Shown: positions 773-46,300, counted from the first letter of the stretch. The stretch is 64,000 nt of DNA from an uncultured Methanomassiliicoccales archaeon (GCA_964396265.1 CAYNEM010000006.1:60789-124788); one strand, 5' to 3'. Program-made: numbers and translations. Notes: generated by a model from the sequence alone, not told the origin.

Positions 773-846
773 CGCAACTCCCCGTTGGGGAATGAGTCCA
801 TCGGATAAAGACCCGCTCCGTAAAGCCGCGACTCGAAACCTTCATA

Positions 847-2679: not shown

Positions 2680-2725
2680 CGGCTGCGAGGCGAGAATTTA
2701 AGGGAGGCGCGGCCTTCCGTCGCCC

Positions 2726-4060: not shown

Positions 4061-4113
4061 TTCGCGCTCCTCCGGCGCATCCTTATATCGACCGCATACG
4101 GTTCCGAGCCGTC

Positions 4114-21287: not shown

Positions 21288-21554
21288 ATGGCGGAGCTCG
21301 TTTCGGTGGACCGCGCAGGGCGCGTCGTGCTGCCCAAGAAGATCCGAGACGCCTTGGGTATCGACGAGCGGACGAAGCTCCTCGTCGCGGTCGGTGAGCA
21401 CGGTCGACTGGTGCTCCAGAAAGTGGATGTGGAGGCCATCGCGGGTCGGCTGGAGAAGGAACTCGCCGGGAAGGACGTGGATGCGATTGTCCGGAAAGTC
21501 CGGAGGGAGATGAAGGCCCTTGCCCGCCGCCGGTATCCGGACCTTCTTGCTTGA
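21288..21554 (+). CDS. vapB: AbrB/SpoVT-type antitoxin (VapB-like)
   Basis: MAELVSVDRAGRVVLPKKIRDALGI.. swapped-hairpin AbrB motif. TATA-like TATTTAAAT at 21254-21262. Confidence 0.8.
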   Translation: MAELVSVDRAGRVVLPKKIRDALGIDERTKLLVAVGEHGRLVLQKVDVEAIAGRLEKELAGKDVDAIVRKVRREMKALARRRYPDLLA

Positions 21555-21951
21555 CACGAACGTCTTCGTGGCAGCGGTGAAGCACCCGGCGAGGGAGACC
21601 GCCACGCTCCGTCTCCTCCTCGAGGTCCTTCGGCGCGACGACGTCGCTCTCGTCGGGAACGACCTGTGGCTCGAAGAGATGCTCCGGTATGCCGAGGCCT
21701 TCCGTTCCGAGACCGCCTCCCAGCTCGTCGCCGCCTTAGTCGAGAAGACGCGGTTCGTTCGCGTCGACGCAAGCTTTCGGGCCGTCTGCCGACGGTTCAT
21801 GACCACTCCCGACCCCGCGGATGTCCTCCACGCCGCGACCTGCCTGCAGGAACGGGCGGTCCTCGTCACGAACGATCGGCACTTCGACCGGATCCGGAAG
21901 GAGGGCATCGTCGAGGTCTGGGACATCGCGAAAGCCATTCACTCCCTCTGA
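21520..21951 (+). CDS. vapC: PIN-domain toxin VapC
   Basis: FLLDTNVFVAA.. and ..VTNDRHF.. match conserved PIN acidic residues. Overlaps the 3' end of vapB, so its exact start is uncertain. Confidence 0.8.
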   Translation: MPAAGIRTFLLDTNVFVAAVKHPARETATLRLLLEVLRRDDVALVGNDLWLEEMLRYAEAFRSETASQLVAALVEKTRFVRVDASFRAVCRRFMTTPDPADVLHAATCLQERAVLVTNDRHFDRIRKEGIVEVWDIAKAIHSL

Positions 21952-22178
21952 GTCCCGCCGTTAGGTCGATGGACGAGTGCGAGCCGTAGCTGGACTAGCC
22001 GACGTTCTGCAAGGTGGAGTGGCAGCTCTTGACCCCGTCGACCTGACGCCCGTCCCGAAAGCTGGCATCGGATCCCCGATGGGGCGAGGCGACTTCTCCG
22101 CGACATGTCGCGCGCATCCCTTTCGACAGAGAAACCCAACCAGGCTCGGCGGCGACGAGCCGCCAGAAGGACCCAACC

Positions 22179-22637
22179 ATGCGAACGAACGAAGAAGGTG
22201 TGTCTCCGGTGATTGCGACCATCCTGATGGTGGCGATCACCGTGGTGTTGGCGGCGGTGCTGTACGTGATGGTGACGAACCTGATCGACGACCCCGGCGG
22301 ACGGCGACCCATCGTCACCCTGGACTCGATGGGATGCGATGCGGTTGAGTGCCGGGGGCGCGTGACGGCTGCCTCGTCGCCCTCGGTCGATCTGGGCCGG
22401 TTCCGCGTGACCGTCCTCGCCGACGGGAACGCCCTGATCCTCCCGACGGAACTTGTGGCCGGCGTGGACATCAGCGGAGGGGGCCTCACGCTCCGATACA
22501 CGGATCTTGGTGCCGAGGGGAAGGTGACGGGCGGCGACACGTTCCGCATCACGGGGATCTCGGCGGGGGTGGAGTACGAGGTCGTTCTCTTGTGGAACGA
22601 CGGAACGGGAATCCAGTCCGTGACGTTCAGCACCTAG
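22179..22637 (+). CDS. archaeal type IV pilin-like protein (class III signal peptide, DUF1628-type N-terminus)
   Basis: MRTNEEGVSPVIATILMVAITVVLAAVLYVMV is a typical prepilin-peptidase (PibD/FlaK) substrate N-terminus (..G/VSPVIA..). Confidence 0.8.
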   Translation: MRTNEEGVSPVIATILMVAITVVLAAVLYVMVTNLIDDPGGRRPIVTLDSMGCDAVECRGRVTAASSPSVDLGRFRVTVLADGNALILPTELVAGVDISGGGLTLRYTDLGAEGKVTGGDTFRITGISAGVEYEVVLLWNDGTGIQSVTFST

Positions 22638-24953: not shown

Positions 24954-25010
24954 GTCGGACGCCGAGCGGGGTCCGGGGGTATGAAGATGAGGGCGACGTG
25001 TCGGTCCGCT

Positions 25011-27002: not shown

Positions 27003-29774
27003 TCACGATCGCTTCGCATCCGGAGATGTCGACACGCTCCGGCTGCGGCCCCTGAGGACCGCGACGGTCACACCCGCCGCCAGGATCCCTCCGTCGACCA
27101 CGGCGCCGACGCCAAGCAAGGGCGGGATTGACAGCAACCCGGTGAAGTGCGACAGGATCCCGGTCGCAGCTTCCGCGAGGACGAAGGGGAGACTCGTGGT
27201 GGCAAATGCGACGATAGCGGAACTGCGCCCTCCCTCGTGCCCTTGCGCGCTCCGCCTCGACGACGATGCGCCCAAGGCGATGAGCACGGCGGCGAACACC
27301 GCGGCGACGAGGGGCTTCCAGTTGACATTCGCGGGCGCGAGCGGAATGACGACCTCTACCGCTACGCTCGCCGAGCTCACATTCCCGTCGTCGTCCGCCA
27401 CGACTAACCAGACGATGTAGAACCCGGGCCTGGAGAAAGCGTGCGCCTGCGCGGAGCTCGGCCCGCTCACCGGCGGCGTCCCGTCGCCGAAGTCGAACGC
27501 GTAGTCCACGATCGTCCCGTCGAGATCGCTCGAGCCGCTTCCATCGAAGGTGATCGAGACCTCGACTTCCACGGTGGTCACGCTCGCCGTAATCACCGCC
27601 GTCGGAGCCAGGCCCCACACCGTGACCGTGACCTGATCCGAATCGGTCAGTCCCTCCGTGTCCGCGGCGGTGAACTGCAGGACGTAGGTTCCCAGGACGG
27701 GCGCAAAGAAGTCCGCCGCGTTCGTCGTCCCGCCATTCAGGGTCACGCTCGCGGGCCCGGAGACTTGCGACCATGCGACGACGAGGGCGTCTCCGTCCGG
27801 GTCGGAAACGATGCCGTACACAAAGACCTGGGTGCCCTTGCGGGCCATGAAGCTCGACCCAGCATCGACCGATGGCCCCGCGTTGGAGACGGACACCGTC
27901 ACTTGGACGGAATCCGTGCCCTCGAAGTCCCCGTCATCAACGGTCAGCTCGAACACGTACGTCCCCGAGACCGATGGCGTGAAGTCGGCCGTCGCTGTGC
28001 CTGCGCCGTTCATGACCACGGGAGGCCCGGATATCTGAGACCAAACGTAGGCGAGTCCGTCTCCGTCCGGATCGGAGGAGGCCAAGCCGTCAAGGGGCAC
28101 CGCGGAGTACTTCGGAGCCGTGATGGGCGCTGTGGCAACCGCGACCGGCCGCGCGTTGAGGACCGTCACCACGATCGTGTCTGAGTCGGCGCCGCCAAAG
28201 CCGTCGTCCGCCCGAAGGAGGAACATGCACGTGCCGCTCCGTATCGCGGTGAAGGCCGGCATCGCGTCATTTGGGTCGGACAATGTGATTCCAGTAGGTG
28301 CCGTCCACGCGTACGTCAGAGCGTCGCCGTCAGGGTCAACCGACCCGGTGGCGTCGAGTGCGAGGAGGACGTTCTTCGCGGCGGTGGTCTGATCCGGACC
28401 CGCGTTCGCAACCGGGTTCCGGTTGAGCGGGGTTACTGCGACGGAGGTCTCCCCGATTCCTCCGAAGCCGTCGTCCACGGTGAGGTTGAACACATACGTT
28501 CCAAGCTCGGTCGGGATGAAGGATGCCGTGGCGGTATTGGCGCCCGTCAGGGTCACCTCGGGACCGCTGACCTTGCTCCAGGAAAACGTCAACGAGTCTC
28601 CGTCGGGGTCACCGCTGCCCGTGCCGTCCAATACGACGATCTGTCCGCGGAAGATCGGGGGGGCCGTGGCGGTGGCGCTCGCCGTCGGCGGGCGGTTCTC
28701 AATCTGGATCGTGAGCCCGTCCGTATCATTCTGGTCGGCGCTGTCCCAAACGGTCAGGCTTACGATAAAGGCGCCACGAACGGCGTAGGCGTGCGTCGCG
28801 AGGGGGTTCGTGTTCATCTCTCCGTCGCCGAAATCCCAGAGGTGTGCAGTGAGGCCGACGTCGTCGGTCGATCCCGTGGCGTCGAAGAGGATCTGGGTTC
28901 CGATGTAGCCGCTCATCGGGGTGGCCGCGGCCAAGGCCGTGGGGGGGTTGTCGATCAGGTTCAGCGAACCGCCAAAGACCACCCCGGCCGGATTGCAGTT
29001 GTACGGTCCGTCGCCGCAGCCGAAGAAGCCATTCGCGGCACGGATGGTGATGACGTTTGTGCCCGGGAGAAGGTACGGCAGAATGTCGAAGGTGGCCAGC
29101 GAATCGTGCGCTGGACCGGCAAGGGACTCATCCGTCACGCTGCCAGTTGTTCCCACGAACATGCCGTTGACGCGCACCTCAGCGAAGTCATCCACGGCTA
29201 CCGATGTTGTTCCTCCCGTAAACACCCCGGGGAAGTCGAACACTTTCGAGAAGAAGAATTCCGCGGGGAACGCTGGGGACGTTGTACCATCGATCGCAGG
29301 AGCCCAAATCCACGTCGCGCCTGGAATACTCGACAAGTCGGCCGTCCATCCGTCATAAGGGTAATCATACAACGTGGCCCCCGGAGGGCAATTCGACGGC
29401 GCGAAGTCGTTTAGGCAAATATTCTGCGCGAGGCCCAGGAAGGTCCCCGCGGAATCGGAGACTGACCAGGTGGTGTCCGAGACGAACGGAATCGTTCCCG
29501 TTGGGGCGTCCTCTTCGTCGTCGTTCAGAACGCCGGTGTTCGCGGCCACGAACAGGTCCGGGCCTGTATCGGGGATTGGCAGCGCGCTCAGGGGGTGGGG
29601 TTGGAGGAGACCTGCGGAGGGCGCCTCGTCCAGACGAGGGCTTGCGATCGACGAGCCCCCATCGTCCGCCGAACTCGCGAGGAGTTGGGACGACGGGGGG
29701 AGGACCAACACCGCCAACACCGCCAAGGCGACGACCGCTGCGGCTCGCAACCCCTCGCCCTCCCTCCGGTACAT
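27003..29774 (-). CDS. cell-surface protein with multiple PKD domains and C-terminal TM anchor
   Basis: Signal peptide. At least five PKD-like units (e.g. GTQILFDATGSTDDVGLTAHLWDFGDGE..; FDGSGSSDLDGTIVDYAFDFGDGT..). C-terminal hydrophobic helix plus basic tail. Confidence 0.8.
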   Translation of the reverse strand: MYRREGEGLRAAAVVALAVLAVLVLPPSSQLLASSADDGGSSIASPRLDEAPSAGLLQPHPLSALPIPDTGPDLFVAANTGVLNDDEEDAPTGTIPFVSDTTWSVSDSAGTFLGLAQNICLNDFAPSNCPPGATLYDYPYDGWTADLSSIPGATWIWAPAIDGTTSPAFPAEFFFSKVFDFPGVFTGGTTSVAVDDFAEVRVNGMFVGTTGSVTDESLAGPAHDSLATFDILPYLLPGTNVITIRAANGFFGCGDGPYNCNPAGVVFGGSLNLIDNPPTALAAATPMSGYIGTQILFDATGSTDDVGLTAHLWDFGDGEMNTNPLATHAYAVRGAFIVSLTVWDSADQNDTDGLTIQIENRPPTASATATAPPIFRGQIVVLDGTGSGDPDGDSLTFSWSKVSGPEVTLTGANTATASFIPTELGTYVFNLTVDDGFGGIGETSVAVTPLNRNPVANAGPDQTTAAKNVLLALDATGSVDPDGDALTYAWTAPTGITLSDPNDAMPAFTAIRSGTCMFLLRADDGFGGADSDTIVVTVLNARPVAVATAPITAPKYSAVPLDGLASSDPDGDGLAYVWSQISGPPVVMNGAGTATADFTPSVSGTYVFELTVDDGDFEGTDSVQVTVSVSNAGPSVDAGSSFMARKGTQVFVYGIVSDPDGDALVVAWSQVSGPASVTLNGGTTNAADFFAPVLGTYVLQFTAADTEGLTDSDQVTVTVWGLAPTAVITASVTTVEVEVSITFDGSGSSDLDGTIVDYAFDFGDGTPPVSGPSSAQAHAFSRPGFYIVWLVVADDDGNVSSASVAVEVVIPLAPANVNWKPLVAAVFAAVLIALGASSSRRSAQGHEGGRSSAIVAFATTSLPFVLAEAATGILSHFTGLLSIPPLLGVGAVVDGGILAAGVTVAVLRGRSRSVSTSPDAKRS

Positions 29775-29807: not shown

Positions 29808-32210
29808 TCACGGGATGAAGTTCTGCGTCTCCGGCAGCGGCAGCACGATCGGGACCTCGAAGAGGTTCGTCGGCGTCGGGTGGATCACGACGAGGCCGTC
29901 GCTCGCGAGGAACTGCGCGGCCTGTTCCTGCGCGCCCCGTGAGATGGCGGCGAAGTACGCGTCGGTGATGACCCCCTGGATAGGGAACGGGTGGGGGTTC
30001 TTCCGCGCGGCCGTCGTGCAGGGGTTGGCGGCGCACGCGAGGTCGTGGCGGTAGTACGTCGTGTACGCCTCGAGGCCTCCGGCCCGGATCACGGCGCTGG
30101 CGCTGGGATTCGGCTGGGTCTGGTCTCCCTTTGCCATCTGGATGAGAACGCCTCGAACGCGCACGTCGTCCTCGTCGCATTCGTCATCATCGTCGTCGTC
30201 ATCATCGTCGTCGTCATCCTCGCAGCTCTGGAGGACCGTCCGAAGGTGTTTCGCGTAAGCGATCGGTTCCCCGGATTGCATCGCCCACTCGCTCCACTCC
30301 ATGTACTCTTGGATCGCGATCGCTCCGGCCACGGTGTTGACGAGCGGCGGCTGGTCTCGGAGCGGGATGTTCTCGTTGAAGACGATGCCACCCACGTTGA
30401 TCAGGGAGGGAATCCGGCTCGCGAGCGTCCTCCCGACGATGTCCCGCTGGTTCCCTAGGCGCTGGAGATGAATCTGCGGGCCGCCCATCGCATTCAGGAC
30501 GCTGGCCCGGATGGCGGGCTCGATCGCAACGAGTGGGCCGCCGAAATTGGTGCCTAACGACCACCCGAGGAAGTACATCCGGTCGGCATCCAGGTCCGGG
30601 GCGCCGTCGCCGTCCACGTCGATGCCCAGCTGGACGGCGCGGACGAGGACCAAGTGGTCAATGGCCGTCTGCTTCATGGCGTGCGCACGGCTGAGCAGTT
30701 CGTACGGTTTGAGCGCGAGCCCGCCCTCCTGTGATCCGATGACCTGGTTGCCGTCGACGTCCCTGCTGCGTCCGCCCGCGAGGAAAGTCGTCGAGGAGCC
30801 GTCGACCAGCGTCACCCGATTCGTGCTGTTCGGACCGAGTCCTCGCCCCACCGGATTTATCACCATGGAGGCGATGCCATACTTGGCAAGGGTGGGCGCG
30901 AGCAGCGTCGGGAACACTTCCTTTTCCCGGTCGCCGCCGACCCCGAGCATCGCCACGGGCCAGCCGTCCTCCGGCTCCGGCCCCGAGGGCAGCAGGAGGT
31001 TGAAGTAGAGGTCCTGCATGCCGGTGACTGGCGGCACTCCGTCCTCCGTTCCGACGACATTGAAAGTCACGTCGGGCCTCAGGAAGTTCGGCGCTGAGAG
31101 GCGCCCGTAGGCGATCGATCCGACGGCCCCCGGGACGAAGGCGAATGCGTTGAAGTTGACGTTGACCGTCGTGAACGAGTCCGGGGAGACTCCGGTGTGC
31201 CGGATGGCGGCGATCGATCCGATTTCCGAGAAGGAGTACACGGTTCGCGCTCCCCCGGGTCCAAGCCCGAAGTCCGCGACGGGCGCCGGGAGCGAGCGCA
31301 CATAGTCGCGAATCCGCGACATAGCACCGGTAGTGGACTGCGTCGTGAACACGGTGGCCACCGCGACCTCTTTCTTCGAGACTCCAGCGTCACGCGCCGC
31401 ATCCAGGGCGTCTTGGATCGCCTCCCTGTAGTGACGGGTTCTGCGGTCCCCCGAATGGCGCTCGTCGTCATCGTCATCGTGGTCGGCCTTGCCTCTAAGG
31501 AATGCGGCGAATTCCGGACTCTTCCCCACAGGGTTGCCCGCGGGGTCGCGCACGCCGGTCGTAACAATCAGGGCGTAACGCGTCGCCTCCTCGAGCAGTG
31601 GATCCGCCTCGACGAACAGCGTGGAGGTCGCCGGGTCCCAGACGACTTGGTTAATTCCAATCCTCATCGCCCTTTCATTGTCGTCGTGACGTCCGCCCCG
31701 GTCCTGATCTCGCCCTCGATCGTCATCGTCGTCATTCAGTACGAGAAGAAATACGGTGTCCGAGCTCACGGAGGTCGGGTCGATGGCCCCGTTGAACGGG
31801 ATGGCGAGCCGCGGCAGCAGGTTGAACCCATCGAGCGTGTTCAGGATGTCGATGTCCTGGCAGTCGGAGGGACGCACCGCACAGTCAGGCTTTGGCAGAG
31901 AGATGCGCAGACCGGTGATTTGGTCGTGATCCCGGATAGTCCACAAGTCGCTGGGGAACGGCGACGTCTGCGTCGTCCCCAGGTCGAACCGCGGATATGT
32001 GCCCGCAGGCGGACTTCCGGGCGCGGCCACGACGCCCGCGAGCGCCGGTATCACCAATGCCGCCAAGATCCACCCGCCCCACCAAGCGCGACCGAGTGGA
32101 AATCCGTTCGAACCCCTTCCCGCATTCCTCCCTGCACTCCTCCACACCGAAGCCGTTTCGATCGAGTCCGACATATAATCGCCGAACTGCGAAGGATGGG
32201 GGCGATACAA
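29808..32210 (-). CDS. secreted alpha/beta-hydrolase-like protein with poly-Asp insertions
   Basis: Signal peptide (an alternative start at MSDS 32174 is possible). GWSLG nucleophile-elbow-like motif. Acidic tracts DDDDDD, ADHDDDDDERH and CEDDDDDDDDDDDDECDEDD, the last encoded by a (GAC/GAT)n microsatellite at about 30171-30230. Confidence 0.6.
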   Translation of the reverse strand: MYRPHPSQFGDYMSDSIETASVWRSAGRNAGRGSNGFPLGRAWWGGWILAALVIPALAGVVAAPGSPPAGTYPRFDLGTTQTSPFPSDLWTIRDHDQITGLRISLPKPDCAVRPSDCQDIDILNTLDGFNLLPRLAIPFNGAIDPTSVSSDTVFLLVLNDDDDDRGRDQDRGGRHDDNERAMRIGINQVVWDPATSTLFVEADPLLEEATRYALIVTTGVRDPAGNPVGKSPEFAAFLRGKADHDDDDDERHSGDRRTRHYREAIQDALDAARDAGVSKKEVAVATVFTTQSTTGAMSRIRDYVRSLPAPVADFGLGPGGARTVYSFSEIGSIAAIRHTGVSPDSFTTVNVNFNAFAFVPGAVGSIAYGRLSAPNFLRPDVTFNVVGTEDGVPPVTGMQDLYFNLLLPSGPEPEDGWPVAMLGVGGDREKEVFPTLLAPTLAKYGIASMVINPVGRGLGPNSTNRVTLVDGSSTTFLAGGRSRDVDGNQVIGSQEGGLALKPYELLSRAHAMKQTAIDHLVLVRAVQLGIDVDGDGAPDLDADRMYFLGWSLGTNFGGPLVAIEPAIRASVLNAMGGPQIHLQRLGNQRDIVGRTLASRIPSLINVGGIVFNENIPLRDQPPLVNTVAGAIAIQEYMEWSEWAMQSGEPIAYAKHLRTVLQSCEDDDDDDDDDDDDECDEDDVRVRGVLIQMAKGDQTQPNPSASAVIRAGGLEAYTTYYRHDLACAANPCTTAARKNPHPFPIQGVITDAYFAAISRGAQEQAAQFLASDGLVVIHPTPTNLFEVPIVLPLPETQNFIP

Positions 32211-32341
32211 GGGAAGATTGGAACGTGACCTGATAGATTATCAAGTCTCTTTGGTGCGTCAGCTTATACGTCTTGGGGGGGAGGCGCCTTCGGAGGCTAT
32301 GCCTCCCACATGGGTTGGCGATTCGATTGCGGCTCCAGGGG

Positions 32342-35300
32342 CTATCGCGGCGCCCCCCAATCGTCGGTTTCGTCGACGGGCTCGGGGTCGGTGGCACTGC
32401 CTCGATCGGCCTGGGATCCCGCATCGCCCGGGACGTCGCCGAGATTTGCGGTGTACCTTTTCGCGCGCCCTTTCCTCTCCACGCGTAGGACCCCCAGCGC
32501 TGCCATCCGACTGATGTGGTAGCTGACGGCGGGCTGGCTCACGCCCACATCCTTCGCGAGTTCCTTTTGTGTGAGTCCCGATGTCCCGCGGATCCTCTGG
32601 AGCAGGAGGAGTTCGATGTCCGTGAGCCTGGGCTGCATCTCCGCCACGCGATGCCCGTACGGAGCGTACCGCCGGAACCGGCCGTCTCTCCAAGACTTGA
32701 TTTCTCCTTCCTTTTCAAGGACCCAGAGGTGGTAGGTCAGCGTGCCCATCGCCATCTTGAGGTCCGCGCGGATTGCGGCGAAGTTCGCGGCAGGGTTTGC
32801 CGCCAGGTAGCCCACGACCATGCCGCGCTTCTCGTGGTCCAGGATGTCGCCGTGGGTGAGCCGCGCCCACAACACAGCGAACGGTACCCAGAACGACCGC
32901 CGCAGGTACTCGTACAGCCATGAGATGGAGACCGCGATACTTACGGTCACCGCGAGGACGATCCAGATGAGCGGGAAGGGAGCGGCGGGCGTCGCCACGA
33001 TGGTCACGAGGAACGCGCGTTCCACCGCCTGGTTGTTCAGTCGATCCCAAGCGCGGTGGACCACCACATGATCGCCCGCCGGGAGCGAAAAGCTGACTTC
33101 ATACGGAATCCAGGACCCGTTGTCCACTTGGTACTCGATGCGGTCGACTCCGCTCCCTGCATCGGAGGCGGACAAGGTGAACCGAGTGGCCGTCGTGAAG
33201 GGGCCTTGGTCGGGCGTGTATGTCGTGGCCGGCGGCGTATTGTCAAGCACGACGCGGAGCACGCCCGCCACGTTATTGCCTAGGAGGTCCGTCGCTCGGT
33301 ACTCCAGCGTCCTCGGTCCGTCAGCGCCGACGAGAGTCAACGGCGCCGCGTACGGAGTCCACGCGCCGTCCCCGTCGAGGCGGTATTCCGTCAGGGCGAC
33401 ACCAACAGGAGTTGCCCCGCCATCCGCCGCCGCGAGCGCAAGCGCAGTGGAGGAGTTCACGAACGTGTCCGCAGCGACGAACTTGGGCTCTCCAATCGCG
33501 AGGGTCGTCGACGGCGGTGTGTCGTCCACGCGGAGCCGTGCGGAACGCGCCACTTCCCGCGTCCCCGTGTTGTCCTCGCTGTACCACCCGAGAAGGTGCT
33601 CGCCCTCGCTAAGCAGCGAGAACGGGCCCACGTAGTCAATCCACAGCGGGGCGTTGTCGATCCTGTAGCGCGTGAACCTGATGCCTGTGCCGTTCCTGTC
33701 GAGGACCGAGAGGGAAAGGGGAGTGACCGATGTAACGTACGTCTCCGGAGCTGTGTGGTTGGGTTGCCCGATGAGGAGGGCGGTGATAGGTCCGAAGATC
33801 ACTTGGATCGTCGCGCACGCTTCGTTGTTCGACTCGTTGAGCTCGTCGATCCCGTCTCCCGAGTCCACGACCACGCAGATGTCATGTGCACCGGACGGCC
33901 ACGCTGTCCATGTCACCGAGGCGCGGCCGGTCCCGCCGAAAGGGCCTATCTGCGGGATTAGCTGGTCCGTCCCAATCGGGAACCCGCCGGTTGGGGGACC
34001 GTCGAAGAAGCGGACGCGGACCGCGGATGCGACGCCAACGCCTTCATTGTGCACGGTCGCTTCGATGATCAGGTCCTCTCCGGGGTTCACCGCGAGCGGT
34101 GGGACGAAGGCGATGTCCGCGGGGACGACGCTTAGGTCGGAAGGCCACACGAACTTCGCTACGAAGGCATCCTTCCAGTTGTTGACGTCTGCACTTGAGT
34201 CATCCAAATCCGTATCCCATGCGCCGAAGGTGGACGGGAAGTTCGACGACTGCGTTTCTCCGGTCACGTACGCATTGCCCGCGGAATCGAGGGCGATCGA
34301 CCTCGCGAAGTCGAGGTCACGCCCGCCCAGGTACGTGGAGTAGTCGAGAACGACGCCCCCTGGACCCAGCCTCGTCACGAAGCCGTCGCGTGCCCCCCGG
34401 TTCTGCGTGGAGTTTGCGTCGGGGGTGGGGGGGAAATCGGCTGAGTTCGTGTCCCCCGCCACGTAGGCGTTCCCCGCGCGGTCCACCGCAATCCCGTATC
34501 CGTAGTCACGCTTAGCGCCCCCGAGAAATGTGGCGTAGAGGAGGGCGGTCCCCGTGGGATCGACCTTCGCCACGAAGGCGTCGGTTACGCCGTTATGGGT
34601 GGTGTCGTTGGCCCCATTCGTAGTGGTGAAATTCGTGACGTCTTCCACCGTGGACCCCGTCACGTAGGCGTTTCCGGCGCCGTCCACGGCAATCCCCGAT
34701 CCTTCGTCGAGCCCACTGCCTCCGAGGAACGTGGCGTACACGAGGGAGGTGCCCGCGGGATTCACCATCGCCACGAACGCGTCCCCCGGTCCGCCACCGT
34801 AGGTCTCTTGGACTACACCGGCAGTGACAGGGAAGAATGATGCCGAATCCACCTGTCCCGTTACGTATGCGTTGCCGCCCGAGTCGACCGCGATCGAGAG
34901 GCCCGAGTCGTTCCCAGACCCGCCTAGATACGTTGCATAGTCCAGTGAGCCGCCAGTGACGTTGAGCTTCGCCACGAAGGCGTCCGACGCTCCGCCAAGG
35001 GTCGTGTCGTTCGCGCCAATTCTCCAGGGGAAGTCATCGGAAGATGTGTCTCCTGTAAGGAACACGCTCCCTCCGGGGGCCACCGCAACGGAGTTCCCTC
35101 CGTCTGCCCCTCTGCCCCCGAGATAGCTTGCATAGAGGAGGGCTGCGCCCGTTGCGTTCAGACTCGCCACGAACGCGTCCGACGGTCCGCCAAGGGCCGT
35201 GTCGTTCGCGTTAGGGGTGAAAGGGAAGTTGTCGGAAGATGTGTTTCCCGTGACATAGACAGCACCTAGGGTGTCAACGGCGATCGACCGCCCGCGGTCT

Positions 35301-36388
35301 TCGCCGCCGCCGCCGAGATAGGTCATGTAGATGAGGGAACTGAGCGTGCGATCCAGCTTCGCCACGAAGGCGTCGACTGTTCCATTGAGCGTTTCGTCGA
35401 AAGACCCGAGTGTCGCTGTGAAGTTCGCGGACTCGGTCTCCCCCGTCACGTAGGCATTGCCGTCCGCGTCCACAGCGATGGCGGTTCCCCCGTCGGCGCC
35501 GGGCCCGCCAAGAAACGTAGCGGTGAGGAGAGGGTCGATCACCAAGGGTTTAGAGCCTTCCACCCCTTGGCATCGCAGGCCGTAGGAACGAGGACCGCGA
35601 GGGACGAACGCGCACGGAACGCGATCTGCTCCTTGATATGCGATCGGCGCGGAGTCGGTGAGACTCCCCACGGATGTTTGGATCCACGCGTTGCCGGCTC
35701 CATCAATCTCAATCCCGTCCGCACCATCGTACACCAACGTGATGTCCTCGGGGCTTACGCCCGCAAGGAGGTGGAACTCGTATTTCACGCCAGTAGGAGT
35801 TGCGCGGTAAATGAGATCCACGCCTCGATATAGATCCTCATACACGACCTCGCCGTAACTCCGGACGCCCGTCCGCCAGAGAGCGGGATCGCTTCCCAGG
35901 AAGAAGTGGCTCAGATGGGGGCTGGGTTCCCTCGCCCGCGGGAGTACATCGTTCGCACCTTCGAACAGGAGCTGCAGCATCACTCCCCTCGAGTGGGCAG
36001 ATCCGTGCAGCTGTGCCGTGGGCATCATCGGATGACGTTCGTCTCCCATCGACGATTGCGAAGTCTCGACGACTTTGAGGAGAACGGAGCTCTCCGCAAA
36101 TCCCGCTTGGAGATCCCGCGATACGATGTAGAACCGCACATCTCGGTTGTGGATCTGACCTCGGTTTTCTATGAAAGATGAAGACACCGGTTCATCGAGA
36201 ACCCGGTTCGCAACCATCTCCATAGGAACGGACTGCGCTCTGTCCTCAGCGTTCATGTGATCACTGTCTGGCGAGGGGGCGATTCCGGCGAGGCCCGAAG
36301 AGACCGCGAGAAGAAGCGGCCAGAGCCACCACGATTTGTTCCGCGCGTCGAAACCTCGCGTTGGCATCTCTGACCTAAGCGAAATCAA
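32342..36388 (-). CDS. membrane-anchored beta-propeller (SBBP-type repeats) / CARDB protein with cytoplasmic tandem winged-helix DNA-binding domains
   Basis: Signal peptide. About 8 repeats of DAFVAKLNxTG..LxYATYLGGxGxDxGxxIAVDxxGNAYVTGxTxSxxFP (SBBP-like). CARDB segment. One TM helix (PFPLIWIVLAVTVSIAVSISWLY). C-terminal MarR/TrmB-like wHTH twice (..GMVVGYLAANPAANFAAIRADL..; ..LLLQRIRGTSGLTQKELAKDVGVSQPAVSYHISRM..). Confidence 0.8.
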   Translation of the reverse strand: MISLRSEMPTRGFDARNKSWWLWPLLLAVSSGLAGIAPSPDSDHMNAEDRAQSVPMEMVANRVLDEPVSSSFIENRGQIHNRDVRFYIVSRDLQAGFAESSVLLKVVETSQSSMGDERHPMMPTAQLHGSAHSRGVMLQLLFEGANDVLPRAREPSPHLSHFFLGSDPALWRTGVRSYGEVVYEDLYRGVDLIYRATPTGVKYEFHLLAGVSPEDITLVYDGADGIEIDGAGNAWIQTSVGSLTDSAPIAYQGADRVPCAFVPRGPRSYGLRCQGVEGSKPLVIDPLLTATFLGGPGADGGTAIAVDADGNAYVTGETESANFTATLGSFDETLNGTVDAFVAKLDRTLSSLIYMTYLGGGGEDRGRSIAVDTLGAVYVTGNTSSDNFPFTPNANDTALGGPSDAFVASLNATGAALLYASYLGGRGADGGNSVAVAPGGSVFLTGDTSSDDFPWRIGANDTTLGGASDAFVAKLNVTGGSLDYATYLGGSGNDSGLSIAVDSGGNAYVTGQVDSASFFPVTAGVVQETYGGGPGDAFVAMVNPAGTSLVYATFLGGSGLDEGSGIAVDGAGNAYVTGSTVEDVTNFTTTNGANDTTHNGVTDAFVAKVDPTGTALLYATFLGGAKRDYGYGIAVDRAGNAYVAGDTNSADFPPTPDANSTQNRGARDGFVTRLGPGGVVLDYSTYLGGRDLDFARSIALDSAGNAYVTGETQSSNFPSTFGAWDTDLDDSSADVNNWKDAFVAKFVWPSDLSVVPADIAFVPPLAVNPGEDLIIEATVHNEGVGVASAVRVRFFDGPPTGGFPIGTDQLIPQIGPFGGTGRASVTWTAWPSGAHDICVVVDSGDGIDELNESNNEACATIQVIFGPITALLIGQPNHTAPETYVTSVTPLSLSVLDRNGTGIRFTRYRIDNAPLWIDYVGPFSLLSEGEHLLGWYSEDNTGTREVARSARLRVDDTPPSTTLAIGEPKFVAADTFVNSSTALALAAADGGATPVGVALTEYRLDGDGAWTPYAAPLTLVGADGPRTLEYRATDLLGNNVAGVLRVVLDNTPPATTYTPDQGPFTTATRFTLSASDAGSGVDRIEYQVDNGSWIPYEVSFSLPAGDHVVVHRAWDRLNNQAVERAFLVTIVATPAAPFPLIWIVLAVTVSIAVSISWLYEYLRRSFWVPFAVLWARLTHGDILDHEKRGMVVGYLAANPAANFAAIRADLKMAMGTLTYHLWVLEKEGEIKSWRDGRFRRYAPYGHRVAEMQPRLTDIELLLLQRIRGTSGLTQKELAKDVGVSQPAVSYHISRMAALGVLRVERKGRAKRYTANLGDVPGDAGSQADRGSATDPEPVDETDDWGAPR

Positions 36389-36486
36389 TCGGCGTCCCCT
36401 TGATGTAGTAATTGGAAGGCCATCTTATAGGTCTGCCGAGGGCAAGTCGAAGCCTTGATATGGGGACACTATGATACGTTCTGTCA

Positions 36487-39156
36487 GTGGGTGTTGCCAT
36501 GAAATTCGCGCTGCTATTCGGCGTTGTAGCGATCCTCCTCCTGAGCGTGAACTCCGGCGCTGCGCCCCCGTCCTCTGTGCTCTCCGGTTGGTCGGTCCCC
36601 GTGAATCTCGGCCCTATGATCAACTCAGACAGGGTAGACGGGGGGCCCACACTCTCCGAAGACGGCCTCACTCTCTTCTTCGGATCACAACGTGCAGGCG
36701 GGGCTGGCCTAAACGACATATGGGTCTCTCAACGGGCTCGCCCGGCAGATTCGTGGGGGCCCCCCGCGAATGTCGGCGCCCCCGTCAACACGGCTTGGTT
36801 CGATCAGGCGCCTTCGCTGTCACGCGACGGACACTGGTTGTTCCTCAACAGCAATCGGACGGGGACTTTCGGGCGCAATGACTTGTGGGTCTCCCATCGC
36901 GATAACGTCACCGACAATTTCGGCTGGCAGACCCCGGTCAATCTCGGCCCTGGAGTCAACACGGCATTCATCGACCAAGGCGCGAGCTACTTCGAGAACC
37001 ACTCCGGCGTCCCGTTGCTCTACTTCGGCAGCAACCGGCCAGGAATGGGTGCCTCCGACATCTACGTGAGCGCCCAACTGCCCGACGGCTCGTTCGGCCC
37101 CGCGGAGCTCGTCGAAGAGCTGAGTTCCCCGTATCAGGACCAGCGGCCGGTCGTTCGCTTCGACGGACTCGAGATGTTCCTCTTTTCCGACCGACCCGGA
37201 ACGCTCGGGGATTACGACCTGTGGAGCTCCAGCCGCAGGTCGGTATCCGACCCTTGGACCACCCCGGTGAACCTCGGCGCACAAGTGAACAGCGATTCAC
37301 CCGATCAGCAGGGGTGGCTAGCCTCCGACCGCCGGACCCTCTACTTCTCGTCCTCCCGCCCCGGTGGGATCGGAGGGCTCGACCTCTACGTGACCACTCG
37401 GGCCAACCGGCAGCCCAACGCCGGAGGACTTGGTGTGGGGCTTGAAGGCAGCCCCACGACGTTCGATGCTTCCGACTCACGCGATTCCGATGGAGACCCG
37501 CTCCAGTTCCGTTGGGACTTCACCGCCGACGGGAGGTGGGACACGGGCTGGAACTCAAGCTCAACCGCCATGTACACGTTCGGCGACGACTGGACGGGGA
37601 CGGCCCAGGTCCAGGTAACCGACGGTGATCTCACGGACGTCGCGACGGTGGCGGTCGCCGTTCGCAACACTGTGCCGTCACCCTTCGTCAATGCGGCGAC
37701 CCAAGAGCACGATCACAACTTGCCGCGAGGTCACTTCTACCCCCTCGACCCGATCACGTTCGATAGCGCCGCGTTAGACCCGGGGAGCGACGACCTCTCG
37801 TTCGCATGGGAATTCGGGGACGGCACGAGCCTCGCAGGCGGCACGTACTTCAACGACGGCCTTGGGCCGGACCCCCCGAACTCCCCGGGCGGCACAACCC
37901 CGTTCGCCGCGGAAGATCCCGTGCAGCACGCGTACGACCTGCCGGGGGACTACGTCGTCCGCTTGACCGTCCGGGACGACGACGACGGGGAGGCGACCGC
38001 AGAGTTCCCGATTCACATCACCTCAGCAATGGACCTCAAGCAGGAGGCAATCCAGCGAATCAAGGCGCTCAAGGAGCAGGCGCTCGACCACGGGGATTCG
38101 CGGTTCGTCCGCCACCTCGACGACGCGGAGCGGTCCGTGTGGATGAGCCTCGGCCATGTGGAACCGTTCCGGCCGGGGGGGATCAACGCGGCGACGGCCG
38201 CAGACGTTTCCGTGACGCGGAGCCGCGGCAACCGCGTCGACCTCGTCCTCGGCGCCTCGTGGACGCCGCGACTGAGAGGCTACGGTTCTCTCCTGGTGGC
38301 CTGGGACAACGGCGACGTCACCACCGTGGACTTGCCCGACCGTTGGCCCTGGAGGTCACTTCGCTACCACGGGGACGTGTGGATCGATGCGTGGAACCAG
38401 GACGTTTCGATCCTCTCAAGCCAGAATCGGTGGACGGGACAAGTGACCCTGCGGGTTGCTGTGCGCGACGTCAGCCACGGGTTCACCCTCTCCCTCGACG
38501 CGGACCCGGTCGCGAGCCTCACGTTCGCGTACAACGTGCGCCCATGGTGGACCGACGGAGTCCATCTCGACCCGACACACGGGCACCGGGTGTTCGACTT
38601 CGAGCGGAAGGCGGTGGAGTGCCTCGTCACCTTCACGCAGGATAACGACGACGATGAAGACGAGGACGGGGAGCGTGGCGGCATTGGCGTCCTCGATGGG
38701 GACCACGACCGCGAGGAACGCGGCGGTTGCCGCGACCGGGACCACGACGATGACGACGAGGATGAGGGGGACGACGATCGTGGGGACGAGGACGAAGACG
38801 GGCACGACGAGGACGACGGGTCGGACGAAGGCGTCCGCACCGTCCACTGCCGCCTCACGTCGCGCCTCTGGACGGACGCGCAGCGCGCTATCCTGGACGC
38901 GGAGTGCGACGCGATCGCGAATCTGCTTGTAAAGGCAGACGAGATCCTTGCCCGCATCGCGCTGGAGGAGGCGAAGGAGACGCCCGTCCGAGAGCCGCGG
39001 AACCAGGGCAGGGTGGACCGCGACATCGGGAGGGCCGAGCGGGCCCTCGTCAGGGGGCGCGCCGCGTGGGACGACTCCGAGTACGGGGACGCGATCCGGC
39101 AGTTCAGGAAGGGGTGGGAGCATGCGCAGCGGGCGATGCGGCTCGCGATGCGTTAG
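36487..39156 (+). CDS. secreted TolB-like (PD40 beta-propeller) / PKD-domain protein with His/Asp-rich acidic region
   Basis: Signal peptide. PD40-like repeats (PVNLGPxxNSxxxDxxPsLSxDGxxLyFxSxR.G..G..DlWvS) five times. PKD-like units. A D/E/H-rich tract (..DNDDDEDEDGERGG..DHDREERGGCRDRDHDDDDEDEGDDDRGDEDEDGHDEDDGSDEG..). Confidence 0.75.
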   Translation: MGVAMKFALLFGVVAILLLSVNSGAAPPSSVLSGWSVPVNLGPMINSDRVDGGPTLSEDGLTLFFGSQRAGGAGLNDIWVSQRARPADSWGPPANVGAPVNTAWFDQAPSLSRDGHWLFLNSNRTGTFGRNDLWVSHRDNVTDNFGWQTPVNLGPGVNTAFIDQGASYFENHSGVPLLYFGSNRPGMGASDIYVSAQLPDGSFGPAELVEELSSPYQDQRPVVRFDGLEMFLFSDRPGTLGDYDLWSSSRRSVSDPWTTPVNLGAQVNSDSPDQQGWLASDRRTLYFSSSRPGGIGGLDLYVTTRANRQPNAGGLGVGLEGSPTTFDASDSRDSDGDPLQFRWDFTADGRWDTGWNSSSTAMYTFGDDWTGTAQVQVTDGDLTDVATVAVAVRNTVPSPFVNAATQEHDHNLPRGHFYPLDPITFDSAALDPGSDDLSFAWEFGDGTSLAGGTYFNDGLGPDPPNSPGGTTPFAAEDPVQHAYDLPGDYVVRLTVRDDDDGEATAEFPIHITSAMDLKQEAIQRIKALKEQALDHGDSRFVRHLDDAERSVWMSLGHVEPFRPGGINAATAADVSVTRSRGNRVDLVLGASWTPRLRGYGSLLVAWDNGDVTTVDLPDRWPWRSLRYHGDVWIDAWNQDVSILSSQNRWTGQVTLRVAVRDVSHGFTLSLDADPVASLTFAYNVRPWWTDGVHLDPTHGHRVFDFERKAVECLVTFTQDNDDDEDEDGERGGIGVLDGDHDREERGGCRDRDHDDDDEDEGDDDRGDEDEDGHDEDDGSDEGVRTVHCRLTSRLWTDAQRAILDAECDAIANLLVKADEILARIALEEAKETPVREPRNQGRVDRDIGRAERALVRGRAAWDDSEYGDAIRQFRKGWEHAQRAMRLAMR

Positions 39157-43318: not shown

Positions 43319-46300
43319 TTAAAGGCTTTCCTCGTTCGTGTCCTCGGCTTTCTCGGCGTCGCGCATCTTGCGGAGGTTCTGCTCGTATGCTTCCTTGGAG
43401 ATGCGTCCCTCCTTGTAGGCCGTGCGCAACCGCGTGACGCGGTCGACATCGCGCATCGCTTCCGGTGGTGCCTCGGCCGCCCCGGTCGGTTCCGCGTTCT
43501 CCCCTTCGGGAGTTCCCACGTCCTCGATCGGTTCTTTCTGCTTGCGCGTCGGCAGGCCCGGGACGCGGATCCCGTACCGCGGGAGGACGAACCCGAGCAG
43601 CACCCCGAGGAAGATGCCGACCACCGCCAAGCCCGCAGGCAGCAGGAGCGCGGACGTGCCCGCCGGCGCGACCACGACGATCGTGAACCGCTGCTCGTCG
43701 ACGTTGCCGACCGCGTCCCGTGCGACGACGACCACGGTGTTCGTGCCGTAGCCCAGGGTCACGTTCGTCTCGAACGCGCCGCCCGGCGCGGCCACGTTGA
43801 TCCCGTTCACGGTCACGAAGGCCCCGGGCTCCGTCGTCCCCGCGATGCGCACGATGCGCGACTCCGTCCGCGCGGGCGGCAACGGGGCGAACGTCATCGT
43901 GGGGTCGGAGGTATCCCGCACGGCGGACGTCGTGGCGGTCACCTGGTTGCCCGCGGGATCGCGGACGATCGCGGTGATCGTGTTCGTGCCCTCGACGCCA
44001 AGCGTGACGACCTCTCGGAACGAGCCATCTGCGCCGACGGTGGCGGCGTTGCCGTTGATCTCCACGACGAGCGTCCTCGGATCTGCGGGCTCCACGCCGG
44101 AGAGCGCGTCCCGGACGAGGCCCGTCACGAAGACTTGCGTCTCCCCCGTCGCGAAGACCTCGGTGGTGAACCGCGGGATCTCCGGCGCCACGAGGTCGCG
44201 GACGATCGAGATCACGTGGCTCGTCGGGTTGCCGGGGATCCGGTTGCCGGCGCCGTCCTGGTCGAACCAGTCCGTGGAGCTCACTATCACGGAGTTCGTC
44301 CCGTTCTCGAGCGCGACCGTCTCGGAGAACGCCCCCGTGGCGTCCGTTTGCGTCCAGTTCCCGCGGACGCGGTACGACGCAAACGGCTCCGTCGCGCCGA
44401 CGACCGCGTGCGTGTCGAGCGTCGTGTACACGAGGTCGGGGGTCGAGAAGGTGAGGATTGGTACGGTATCGTCGACCACGAAGGTGAACGTCGCGTTCGC
44501 GAGGTTCCCGGCACGGTCTCCGACCCAGGCGTCGACGGTGTGCGTGCCCTCCGACAGGACCGCCGAGGGCGAGTACGTGGCCGTCCCCTCCCAGAGGGCG
44601 AACCGGTTCGCACGCGTCGTGTACAGGATGCTGACAATCGTCCGCGAGGACACGTCGACGCCGTCCAGGAGGAACTGCACGGAGTCGCGATCCAGCTGCC
44701 CGAGGTCCGGGTCCTCGAGGCTCACGATGAGGTACGGCGCCCGGTCGTCTGTCGTCCGGTTGTCCGCGCGGTTGAGGTTGCCGCCGAGCGCGGCGACCTG
44801 GAAGCTCACGATGCTGGGAGCGGCGCGGTCCAGGGTGACGGACACGGGGATCACGACGACGCCCGGCGCGGTCGGCAGGCCGAGGAGCACCGCCCCGCCA
44901 TATGGTGCGTCGACCGTGTCGTTCGGGAAGTCCCAGGTCACGCTGAGCGTCACGGACGCGTACGCCGCCAGCCCGGACTCCGTGCCGTTCACGATCTCTG
45001 CGGGCCTCGGCGCCTCCGGGACCTGGTACCCCGTCCCGGTGTCGAGCGTGACCGCGACGTCCATGTCGAAGTGCCCGATGCCGCCGGGGACCGTGAACCC
45101 GAGGACCTTGACGATGTACTGCCCGTCCGCAGGGGCCACCCATGTCACGCGCTCTTCCGCGTCGCCGTCCGCATTATAGTTCCACAGGCTGCCGCCCTGG
45201 CACAGGCCGGGCGCGACGGGCTGGCAGTCGATCACGAGGTACTCCTCCGGGTCGATGATGCCGTTCGCGTTCCCGTCGCGGAACACCGCCATGTCCAGGT
45301 CCTCGACATCGGACTGGCCGGCGATGTGGACCTCGAGGATGAGCGCCTTCTCCACCGTGAAGATGTAGGAGAAGGAAGCCCGGAACATCCACTCGCCCCA
45401 ACCGGGGAAGTTCCACCAGGTCTGCACGTCCTGCGGGATCTCCAGGTCCGCGAAGGCGGTCGTCGTCGCGGGGCCGACGGCGGACGCGCGGAGCGCGGGG
45501 AAGTTCATGTTCGAGAGGAAGGGGAAGGTCTCGCGGCCGACGAGGGCCCGCGTCACGACGTCGAGGCTCGTGGGCGCGGACACCCAGCCCGCTTGGCCGA
45601 CCGTGAGGGTCGCGTTCGCCTCGAGCCCGCGGAGGGCGAACGCGCGGACCGCGATCACGTTGAGGCCGGGGCTCAGGTCGTACGCGACGACCTCCTCGCC
45701 GCCGCCCGTCAGGGTGCGGAACTCCGGCTTGTCGAGCTCCTCGCTCTTCGCGACCTGGCGCAGGGGGAATGGGCCGTACGTCGTGGCGCTGCCCTGCGTG
45801 GCGGCGTCGCCGCTCGCGCGGTTGAACGCGAAGGTGTCGACGTCGCTCGGGGCGTCCTGCCACGCGGTGCGCACGATGACGCGGAGTCCCGCGGGCGCCG
45901 CGAAGAGGCCCTGGTCCGGGATCTCGAAGAAGAAGAACCGCCAGTCGCCCATGTGCGGATTGCGAAGCCGCGTCCCGCTCGCGAGCGTCTTGTCGTAGCC
46001 GCCGAAGACGCGGTGGTTGTCGTACAGCGCGGTGCTGGCCAGGTCGCCGCCGAACGTGAGGGACGGCGCGCGGGACCCGACGTTCGCGAGCACGGGGATG
46101 GTCGTCGTCACGCCGTTCGTAGTGTCGCGCACGAGGATGGCGCCCTCGTACGAGCCGAGCGCCGCGGTCGGGGGCACGGTCATCGTGGCGGTGATCACCT
46201 GGGAGCTATTGCCGAGGACGTTGGCGGTGCCCTGAGAGAGGGAGACCCACGCCCACGGCGCGCGGTCGAAGAACTCGATCACGAACGTCCAGGCAAGGCC

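Follow-up and report, generated by a model that had tools for sequence, protein, structure and literature searches.

Regulators of the ToxR type combine, in one polypeptide, a cytoplasmic N-terminal winged helix of the OmpR type (Trans_reg_C), a transmembrane helix and a C-terminal periplasmic domain. In archaea, to our knowledge, signalling through the membrane is little understood apart from ArnR and a few two-component systems. A survey of archaeal transmembrane transcription regulators (TTRs), defined as proteins with a DNA-binding domain and at least one transmembrane region, reported 1384 of them in 367 of 404 species, with HTH_20 and HTH_24 among the DNA-binding domains that it lists (Demey et al., 2023; PMC10269533). 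ArnR and ArnR1 of Sulfolobus acidocaldarius are characterised membrane-bound one-component factors for genes of cell-surface structures (PMC6396743). Here we describe a membrane-spanning protein with two winged helices that is encoded in a 64,000-nucleotide stretch of DNA from an uncultured Methanomassiliicoccales archaeon (GCA_964396265.1, CAYNEM010000006.1:60789-124788; hereafter the window), together with the family to which it belongs. An initial annotation of the window had ascribed to this protein a ToxR/CadC-like topology built from unrelated domains, which remains a fair description of the predicted arrangement: a putative sensor outside, one membrane passage and, inside, winged helix-turn-helix (wHTH) domains.

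We read the protein, with a probability of roughly 0.55, as a transmembrane one-component transcription regulator whose contact with DNA takes place at the membrane. About 1100 acidic residues, made up of DUF7948, a seven-bladed SBBP propeller, CARDB and three Ig-like barrels, would lie outside the cell, and one transmembrane helix with a rigid juxtamembrane helix would keep the basic tandem of wHTH domains at the membrane's inner surface. If something binds to the ectodomain or is lost from it, the module, probably a dimer, would engage DNA at the membrane in a different way. The first domain (wHTH1) and the juxtamembrane helix would represent the constant part of the family, and the second (wHTH2) the variable one, presumably the one that gives specificity; it varies more than wHTH1, as expected if paralogues recognise different sites. 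The likeliest targets would be the gene's own promoter and the adjacent operon for a hydrolase-like and a PKD protein, and repression would suit because a conserved inverted repeat lies at the expected transcript start of that operon. DNA binding and dimerisation are inferred, as are the signal, the targets and the direction of the regulation. The reading draws on the following: both winged helices have sequence matches to DNA-binding families (ArsR, MarR and Lrp-type repressors, PDB 5duk), the module is basic in 148 of 148 relatives and the ectodomains are acidic, members of the family repeatedly precede a same-strand gene for a large secreted protein, and conserved promoter elements are found at the regulator gene and at its downstream neighbour.

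The open reading frame (ORF) of 1348 aa that had been placed at 32342..36388 is confirmed on the minus strand, the length being counted from a TTG codon in the ORF listing; its GC content at third codon positions (GC3) is 0.75, similar to that of the adjoining genes. The protein likely starts at the ATG at 36367 and then comprises 1341 aa, the product to which all residue numbers refer. We chose this start because the orthologue at locus L012 begins at the matching ATG (MPTRG / MPPRG) and because the signal-type hydrophobic segment is kept in both proteins; in the window protein its h-region spans residues 13-29 by hydropathy, and it corresponds to the signal peptide proposed earlier. The public gene call for the L012 orthologue, P0008, takes an internal ATG (1926) and omits the signal peptide, and its alignment with the window protein runs from the ATG at 1797 (L012 1797-1925). 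Given gene calls of this type, family counts of an N-terminal signal are underestimates. An exact look-up of the window protein found no identical sequence on record.

Four further properties of the architecture had been anticipated to different degrees. The SBBP propeller stands, with the repeat '..AVD..GN.YVTG.T.S..FP...DAFVAKL' seen seven times by eye, but the earlier count of about eight repeats gives way to seven blades. CARDB was likewise recovered; the list of ectodomains was nevertheless incomplete, DUF7948 and three OmpL47-type barrel domains being additional (Table 1; among the matches listed for the OmpL47-type region, two cover about residues 965-1123). The single transmembrane helix corresponds to one strong hydrophobic segment. 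Finally, two consecutive wHTH domains follow it, as had been proposed, but their description as 'MarR/TrmB-like' does not hold for TrmB: this family is absent from the Pfam matches of the window protein, for which reason we prefer the label ArsR/MarR-like.

The first of these domains is recognised by PF24266 (HTH_HVO_0163_N) over residues 1179-1237, with 35.3 bits against a cut-off of 31; HVO_0163, the namesake of this Pfam family, has been called an ArsR-type transcription protein (PMC10294847). Over residues 1248-1308, the second is matched by HTH_20 (38.7 bits, cut-off 27), HTH_24 (36.6, cut-off 21.9), MarR_2 (31.2, cut-off 27) and HTH_5 (27.4, cut-off 22). The MarR domain scores 25.0 against a cut-off of 24.6, in an alignment limited to the wHTH core of ~60 aa, and the NCBIfam ArsR/SmtB model NF033788 reaches 51.9 bits, just below its cut-off of 55. 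No Pfam match to Trans_reg_C was found in the window protein at E<=0.1. AlphaFold2, given an alignment of 33 sequences that covers the 193 residues ahead of the C-terminal tail (model residue k corresponding to protein residue 1122+k), returned two wHTH folds with a mean pLDDT (predicted local distance difference test) of 89.9, in agreement with the initial annotation. The model consists of the transmembrane helix (11-29), a second helix (31-47), a helix-helix-helix-hairpin unit (50-114), a linker of 13 residues and a second such unit (128-185). In a PDB profile search the first unit resembled the 'putative DNA binding protein' 5duk (E 4e-12) and the second MarR, ArsR and Lrp-type regulators, while Foldseek superposed wHTH2 on ArsR, YgaV and NolR at 1.3-2.2 A and matched the whole module to tandem winged-helix proteins (ScpB, RPC34/62, ESCRT-II and PF0095). 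The place of the flanking helices of soluble ArsR proteins is taken, in the model, by the juxtamembrane helix and the linker. The juxtamembrane family motif, TE.GKY...PLY.RL, is diverged in the window protein (EYLRR...LWARL), and the closest relatives show the same divergence. As to the acidic tail, its acidic stretch with a tryptophan (..PDETDEW..) is kept by the closest relatives P0001 and P0002 only, most tails in the family being short; it could be a partner-binding or an auto-inhibitory motif.

For the orientation in the membrane we infer a type-I, single-pass protein with the N-terminus outside and the C-terminus inside, given a signal-type N-terminus and solely extracellular-type domain families ahead of the transmembrane helix, and Arg-Arg directly after it. 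The relatives point in the same direction, the C-terminal side of the helix being the richer in Lys and Arg: among 126 of them, the 15 flanking residues hold on average 1.55 on this side against 0.93 on the N-terminal side, with the C-terminal side higher in 75 and lower in 24. A further argument comes from a basic module and an acidic ectodomain, since the isoelectric point (pI) of the cytoplasmic module is 10.1 in the window protein and has a median of 9.8 in 148 relatives (all >8, net charge +1 to +21), as opposed to a family median of 4.4 for the ectodomains. The N-X-S/T sequons of the window protein are confined to the part ahead of the helix (16, with 0 after it), and in some relatives the module is a separate ORF without a signal peptide, both of which again favour this orientation. 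A second hydrophobic stretch past the helix, FWVPFAVLWA, belongs to the conserved juxtamembrane helix and, with only about 10-12 residues, would not cross the membrane. None of the outcomes that would have contradicted the initial annotation was observed, namely wHTHs predicted on the outside, a missing transmembrane helix or a C-terminal part of another fold.

The architecture had not been recognised as a described family in the initial annotation. It instead proves to be widespread: an exhaustive HMMER search of 1.84 billion cluster representatives (50% identity), with the cytoplasmic part (165 residues) as the query, gave 4830 matches at E<=1e-3 and 1614 at E<=1e-10, so that, as judged from sequence, the family of the window protein counts at least 1614 cluster representatives. 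NCBI annotates its members generically ('winged helix-turn-helix transcriptional regulator'), and it lies within the surveyed class of TTRs (PMC10269533). In the best 150 of the 1614, the module is matched end to end and sits at the extreme C-terminus of proteins of 113-1884 aa, with a median tail of 12 aa beyond it. A hydrophobic segment directly precedes the module in 131 of 152 sequences, the exceptions being mostly short or fragmentary. Among 59 full-length members, PF24266 is present in 58 and HTH_24 in 59, behind N-terminal domains as different as PKD (11), CARDB (10), DUF11 (8), NosD/beta-helix (5), DUF7948 with SBBP (5), NPCBM_assoc (5), Glucodextran_B (4) and Big_13 (4). The family thus consists of a constant C-terminal module behind a transmembrane helix and of shuffled ectodomains, and the window protein fits this definition, with HTH_HVO_0163_N and HTH_24/MarR matched end to end behind the helix and a diverged juxtamembrane motif. 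Column entropies over 137 modules are lowest in wHTH1 (1.1-1.7 bits, the most conserved part), followed by the juxtamembrane helix (1.95) and wHTH2 (1.9-2.5, more variable), and reach 2.9 bits in the unconserved transmembrane helix. All named sources are metagenome-assembled genomes (MAGs), assigned to a Thermoplasmata or Methanomassiliicoccales archaeon and in one case to a Methanobacteriota archaeon (L011); within this sampling, the family is apparently confined to Thermoplasmata-related lineages. No description of a family with an ectodomain, a transmembrane helix and two wHTHs was found in the literature searched, including papers on 'dark matter' and on ESCRT.

The genomic setting among genes for secreted and surface proteins, as initially described, is borne out by its neighbours (Table 1). 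A locus search from the seven closest sequences gave 10 loci, a set biased to the near subfamily. At L012 the orthologue has the same Pfam architecture, flanked by counterparts of the divergent PD40 gene (75% identity) and of the hydrolase-like gene downstream (74%), followed by an M1 peptidase gene and housekeeping genes; at L001 the order of regulator, hydrolase (54% identity) and PKD protein (50%) is kept. The hydrolase-like and PKD genes of the window probably form one operon, given the gap of 33 nt between them. Synteny with relatives extends to the PD40 gene on one side and to the hydrolase-like gene on the other, plus the PKD gene in the case of L001, and no further than these immediate neighbours. 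In more distant members, large downstream genes on the same strand encode Beta_propel/LVIVD proteins (L006, L009), RTX-repeat proteins (L002, L003) or an HHH_3+SAP protein (L005), and at L010 a gene of ~990 aa takes the equivalent same-strand position.

The spacer of 131 nt between the regulator and hydrolase-like genes is divergent among the window, L012 and L001, save for one block that holds TATAAG, an inverted repeat and TTCCAATC. The repeat, TTGATA-ATC-TATCAG, lies 18 nt past TATAAG, which we take, from the general layout of archaeal promoters, to be the expected position of the transcript start (32230-32244). Its palindrome core occurs once each in the window, L001 and L012, always at the equivalent place. 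The motif TTCCAATY occurs 4 times in the window against 1.28 expected, a number reached in 2 of 100 shuffles; two of the four sites are in the promoters of the regulator and hydrolase-like genes, and L012 has exactly two, at the equivalent places. We regard these elements as candidate operators. They lend no support to the earlier proposal that the protein controls the whole cluster of giant genes: a scan of the window did not find the conserved elements (CTGATA-N3-TATCAG, TTCCAATY) repeated upstream of the genes for the two giant S8 proteases, CTGATA-N3-TATCAG occurring once and none of the 4 TTCCAATY sites lying near them. The S8 genes are moreover set apart from the regulator gene by genes for a FAD/BBE oxidase and an HMG-CoA reductase, and are absent from the orthologous locus L012. 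A regulon of this extent was consequently rejected as unsupported.

Table 1. Coordinates of the regulator gene, its predicted domains, neighbouring genes and candidate promoter elements in the window, and of overlap junctions in related loci.
Feature	Coordinates	Strand	Basis or remark
Gene for 1341-aa membrane-spanning protein (likely start ATG 36367)	32342..36367 incl. stop codon	-	TTG 36388 is the furthest possible start; ATG conserved with L012
Signal-peptide-like N-terminus, residues 1-30: basic n-region, then h-region WWLWPLLLAVSSGLAGI	36278..36367	-	Equivalent segment in L012 orthologue
DUF7948, residues 65-280	35528..36175	-	Pfam E 6.3e-43
Seven SBBP beta-propeller repeats, about residues 283-700	34268..35521	-	Pfam SBBP (PF06739) E 2.2e-55, 7 stretches
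CARDB, residues 744-850	33818..34138	-	Pfam E 3.9e-11
Three OmpL47-type beta-barrel domains, about residues 865-1123 (lower bound estimated)	32999..33775	-	NCBIfam NF047446 E 3.8e-35, 3 stretches
Single transmembrane helix, residues 1131-1153	32909..32977	-	Kyte-Doolittle peak 2.36; helix in AlphaFold2 model
Conserved juxtamembrane helix, residues 1153-1169, reading EYLRRSFWVPFAVLWAR	32861..32911	-	Family alignment and AlphaFold2
wHTH1, residues 1172-1236	32660..32854	-	PF24266, PDB 5duk_A, AlphaFold2
wHTH2, residues 1250-1307, ArsR/MarR-like	32447..32620	-	Pfam HTH families, PDB MarR/ArsR matches, Foldseek
Acidic C-terminal tail, residues 1308-1341, ending ..PVDETDDWGAPR	32345..32446	-	Sequence; closest relatives P0001, P0002
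Candidate promoter/operator of regulator gene: TATAAG (36424-36429), 6 nt, TTCCAATT (36410-36417)	36410..36429	-	Conserved with L012 orthologue
Promoter region of hydrolase-like gene: TATAAG (32263-32268), TTGATA-ATC-TATCAG (32230-32244), TTCCAATC (32216-32223)	32216..32268	-	Conserved in three loci
Secreted hydrolase-like protein, ~800 aa (weak Lipase_bact_N match, GWSLG motif, poly-Asp inserts)	29808..32174 (ORF to 32210)	-	Downstream of regulator gene; likely ATG 32172-32174
PKD x5 surface protein with C-terminal transmembrane anchor	27003..29774	-	33 nt past hydrolase-like gene
Secreted PD40 (TolB-like) + PKD protein	36499..39156 (ORF from 36487)	+	Divergent to regulator gene; ATG at 36499; PD40 part syntenic in L012
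Two giant S8 proteases	43319-50314 and 50537-55918	- (first one)	Window scan
Overlap junctions of sister subfamily	L013 2069-2150, 4993-5071, 8164-8242; L016 3993-4074, 7366-7444; L017 1757-1835; L019-L034 (one or two sites each)		

Further features of the window concern these neighbours or stand apart from them. The poly-Asp inserts of the hydrolase-like protein (such as DDDDDDDDDDDECDEDD) are long; the orthologues at L012 and L001 have shorter ones or none. The S8 protease at 43319-50314 (minus strand, 2331 aa) combines a signal-type N-terminus with a WD40 propeller, Glucodextran_B, Big_13, a hydrophobic segment (2222-2240) and a charged tail of ~90 aa; WD40 repeats are unusual for a secreted archaeal protease. 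A gene with HTH, STAND ATPase and TPR parts (22668-25010, minus strand) lies 5-7 kb from the family member, and homologues of ~30% identity are found near members in L007 (940-3742) and L009 (2482-5353), which are probably close relatives of each other; this neighbour may be a coincidence or a second regulatory partner. Two adjacent same-strand ORFs at 17791-19286 (minus strand) resemble one large serine recombinase (Resolvase and Recombinase, then Recombinase) and are found near genes for a PIN-domain protein and for an archaeal type IV pilin (21514-21948 and 22047-22634, both on the plus strand), a stretch that may be what is left of a mobile element. At 58322-59353 (minus strand) lies a gene with a small GTPase domain of the Ras/Roc family (Ras E 1e-25). 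The window by itself has an archaeal appearance, with genes for an archaeal pilin, an RFC-like AAA+ ATPase and an HMG-CoA reductase.

A more complicated scenario is evident in a sister subfamily, in which the module is split from the ectodomain or overlaps it. Many matches of ~170 aa begin MAAGTEVGKY..., and their interpretation as minimal soluble members was rejected wherever the context was fetched, P0197, P0204 and P0182 being ORFs in the -1 frame. At L013, L016 and L017 the end of the ectodomain gene and the module ORF share 22 nt, the module being read in the -1 frame, with three such ORF pairs in tandem at L013, and 16 more stretches from a metagenome scan bring the total to 18 unique junctions, all with the same two reading frames (Table 1). 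The overlap contains an invariant GGGCTTTTTTGG, the common sequence being GGG CTT TTT TGG CGG CGG GAA CGG AGG TAG, so that the frame-0 product ends in ...PGF(E/G)A, a hydrophobic stretch and GLFWRRERR*. The -1 frame is closed 17-27 codons upstream, and the sole possible start of its ORF is a TTG at the end of the T6 run. A hypothetical -1 shift in this run would yield ...GLF-LAAGTEVGKY..., with the trans-frame peptide ...GLFLAAGTEVGK..., and thus a fused architecture like that of the window protein. Directly past the run (site GGGCUUUUUUGG) lies a long hairpin with a minimum free energy of -38.7 to -45.2 kcal/mol (z -5 to -8), a stability reached by 0 of 200 shuffles; its covariation is modest and restricted to the apical stem. 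We consider the overlap a candidate for a programmed -1 frameshift or, alternatively, for termination-reinitiation. Archaeal genes with documented programmed frameshifting are very few (PMC1616953, PMC8211752). The equivalent junction of fused genes, including the window gene, has no such hairpin (z +0.2, +0.6, -0.1), and the recoding signal is for this reason not applicable to the window gene. The ending of the sister proteins ('PGF(E/G)A - hydrophobic stretch - WRRERR*') resembles PGF-CTERM by eye, but the L013 and L014 proteins gave no NCBIfam match at E<=0.01, and their membership of a PGF-CTERM/archaeosortase system was rejected accordingly; the PGF motif is absent from the window protein.

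Other junctions follow different patterns. At L015 a Big_7/Fn3_arc protein of 1441 aa (666-5612) has no hydrophobic anchor at its C-terminal end, and 9 nt past its gene a minimal member of 203 aa consists of a 19-aa N-terminal stub, a transmembrane helix and the two-wHTH module. At L005 (1400-1470) the ectodomain ORF ends in ...GVVACFRRRRHL* and the module resumes in the +1 frame from a TTT-C site, where the module frame lacks a start codon and the junction a hairpin; this is a single case, for which +1 recoding, a pseudogene and a sequencing error are all conceivable. L003, a further candidate for a split gene, was rejected as two separate genes. From the existence of split forms we argue that ectodomain and module work together. 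A speculative and rather improbable extension, which would make the family the archaeal equivalent of receptor-type membrane-tethered transcription factors, is that adhesion-type ectodomains report surface contact or damage to tandem wHTHs that are activated or released inside, the -1 shift adding the DNA-binding tail in the sister subfamily. If this were true, one sister-subfamily gene would give rise to a plain anchored surface protein and a receptor-regulator fusion at a set ratio.

Several observations weigh against a DNA-binding regulator at the membrane. The literature search turned up no experiment on any family member, the ectodomains consist of repeats like those of adhesins or surface layers and not of classical ligand-sensor domains, and wHTH1 follows the membrane almost at once, a flexible linker being absent, which is awkward for DNA wrapping. 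The synteny is confined to fairly close relatives, TTCCAATY is only 8 nt long and equally frequent in the 2 of 100 shuffles mentioned, and proximity is the sole tie between the candidate operators and the protein. Furthermore, the Foldseek neighbours of the whole module (ScpB, ESCRT-II, RPC34/62) bind proteins as much as DNA. ScpB and ESCRT-II, as protein-binding tandem winged helices, would fit a surface adhesin or enzyme scaffold in which the tandem wHTH is a cytoplasmic docking module that might bind the nucleoid non-specifically, or some conserved partner, so as to position, sort or stabilise surface proteins. We regard this as unlikely, even though the family ectodomains are typical surface or adhesin repeats (PKD, CARDB, DUF11, beta-helix, Big) and wHTH1 with the juxtamembrane helix is conserved far beyond what would be expected of a specificity determinant. 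In the sister subfamily, the frame-0 product is a surface protein alone with a short basic tail, and the ectodomain is therefore evidently able to work without the module. However, both domains match DNA-binding repressor families by sequence, their uniformly high pI and basic wings fit nucleic-acid binding, and the recognition helix of wHTH2 differs among paralogues, a variation needless for a common docking role.

A membrane-tethered factor freed by proteolysis, in the manner of Notch, SREBP or RsgI, would likewise regulate transcription, engagement or shedding of the ectodomain leading to cleavage near the transmembrane helix and to a soluble two-wHTH fragment. The juxtamembrane helix is, however, strongly conserved and continuous with wHTH1, which suggests a function at the membrane and not that of a disposable tether, and no cleavage motif and no gene for a site-2 protease or rhomboid was found beside the gene in a scan covering the window past its first 15 kb. 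Two S8 proteases are encoded nearby, but their genes are not syntenic in L012. The type-I topology, the long repeat ectodomain and the small compact cytoplasmic effector are compatible with release, as are the transmembrane segments of the family, poorly conserved and rich in Gly, Ala, Ser and Thr, and the existence of soluble proteins with the same tandem module and no transmembrane helix (e.g., P0220). Regulated proteolysis also acts on bacterial TTRs such as TcpP (PMC10269533). On balance we find release by cleavage distinctly unlikely. Still far less probable, and largely refuted, is an artefact, be it an ORF made chimeric by faulty assembly or by a frameshift error of sequencing, or a topology that puts the wHTHs outside the cell. 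Some relatives are split or in different frames, and FWVPFAVLWA could pass for a second membrane passage, but this stretch is too short, the module is basic, free of sequons and without a signal peptide of its own in split relatives, and GC3 is uniform. This architecture likewise runs without interruption in independent assemblies (L012, with 54% identity over the full length, L002, P0009, P0011 and P0014), which makes an artefact or an inverted topology very unlikely. We retain the transmembrane one-component regulator as our reading of the window protein.

Thermoplasmata are abundant in soils, sediments and guts. If the signalling role is true, the family would represent a major route in this group, with more than 1000 clusters joining interchangeable surface domains to one conserved module of the DNA-binding type. 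The modular design makes the constant tail separable for DNA-binding tests, for which candidate operators can be named, and the split or overlapping relatives provide a natural experiment on the contribution of the tail and may add a new case of archaeal recoding.

The building blocks of the protein have counterparts in quite different systems. The SBBP propeller and OmpL47-type barrels are shared with Leptospira LipL53, an SBBP lipoprotein, and OmpL47; this is a likeness at the level of domains, the window protein scoring far below the equivalog cut-offs (74.9 vs 400; 79.4 vs 250), and the Leptospira proteins have no cytoplasmic module. Notch shares the type-I orientation, a repeat-built ectodomain, the single transmembrane helix and a small intracellular transcription module, by analogy only; Notch and SREBP are both membrane-tethered transcription factors with domains unrelated to those of the window protein, for which our analysis found no evidence of cleavage. 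In the MarR family the wHTH lies between N- and C-terminal dimerisation helices, in proteins of about 140-150 aa. Fold and sequence signatures are common to both winged helices of the window protein and to ArsR/SmtB and MarR repressors, HVO_0163-type proteins and PDB 5duk, but all of these are soluble, whereas the window protein has two tandem wHTHs behind a transmembrane helix and apparently no flanking dimerisation helices of the MarR type.

Among membrane-bound regulators, ArnR has a single N-terminal HTH, a HAMP-like and a sensing domain and two C-terminal transmembrane helices, with no large extracellular domain (PMC6396743), and our analysis revealed no sequence relationship between it and the window protein. 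With ToxR, CadC and TcpP the window protein shares an extracytoplasmic domain, a single transmembrane helix and a cytoplasmic winged helix in one polypeptide, and the expected control from the membrane. It differs from ToxR and CadC in the reverse order, the signal peptide and ectodomain coming first and the DNA-binding module last, in a tandem ArsR/MarR-like pair in place of Trans_reg_C, in a repeat ectodomain of 1100 aa and in its archaeal host. Through its recognised HTH domains and its transmembrane helix it falls under the TTR definition of Demey et al. (2023; PMC10269533), whose set is given as 404 archaeal species, whereas the named family members are all MAGs; the survey does not single out this architecture, and the supplementary text covered contains no CARDB, PKD or SBBP terms. 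The class of transmembrane transcription regulators is thus already known in archaea, and the family described here falls within it. From the regulators compared, the family is set apart by the ectodomain-first orientation, the tandem ArsR/MarR-like module with its conserved juxtamembrane helix, the large repeat ectodomains and the apparent restriction to Thermoplasmata-related lineages.

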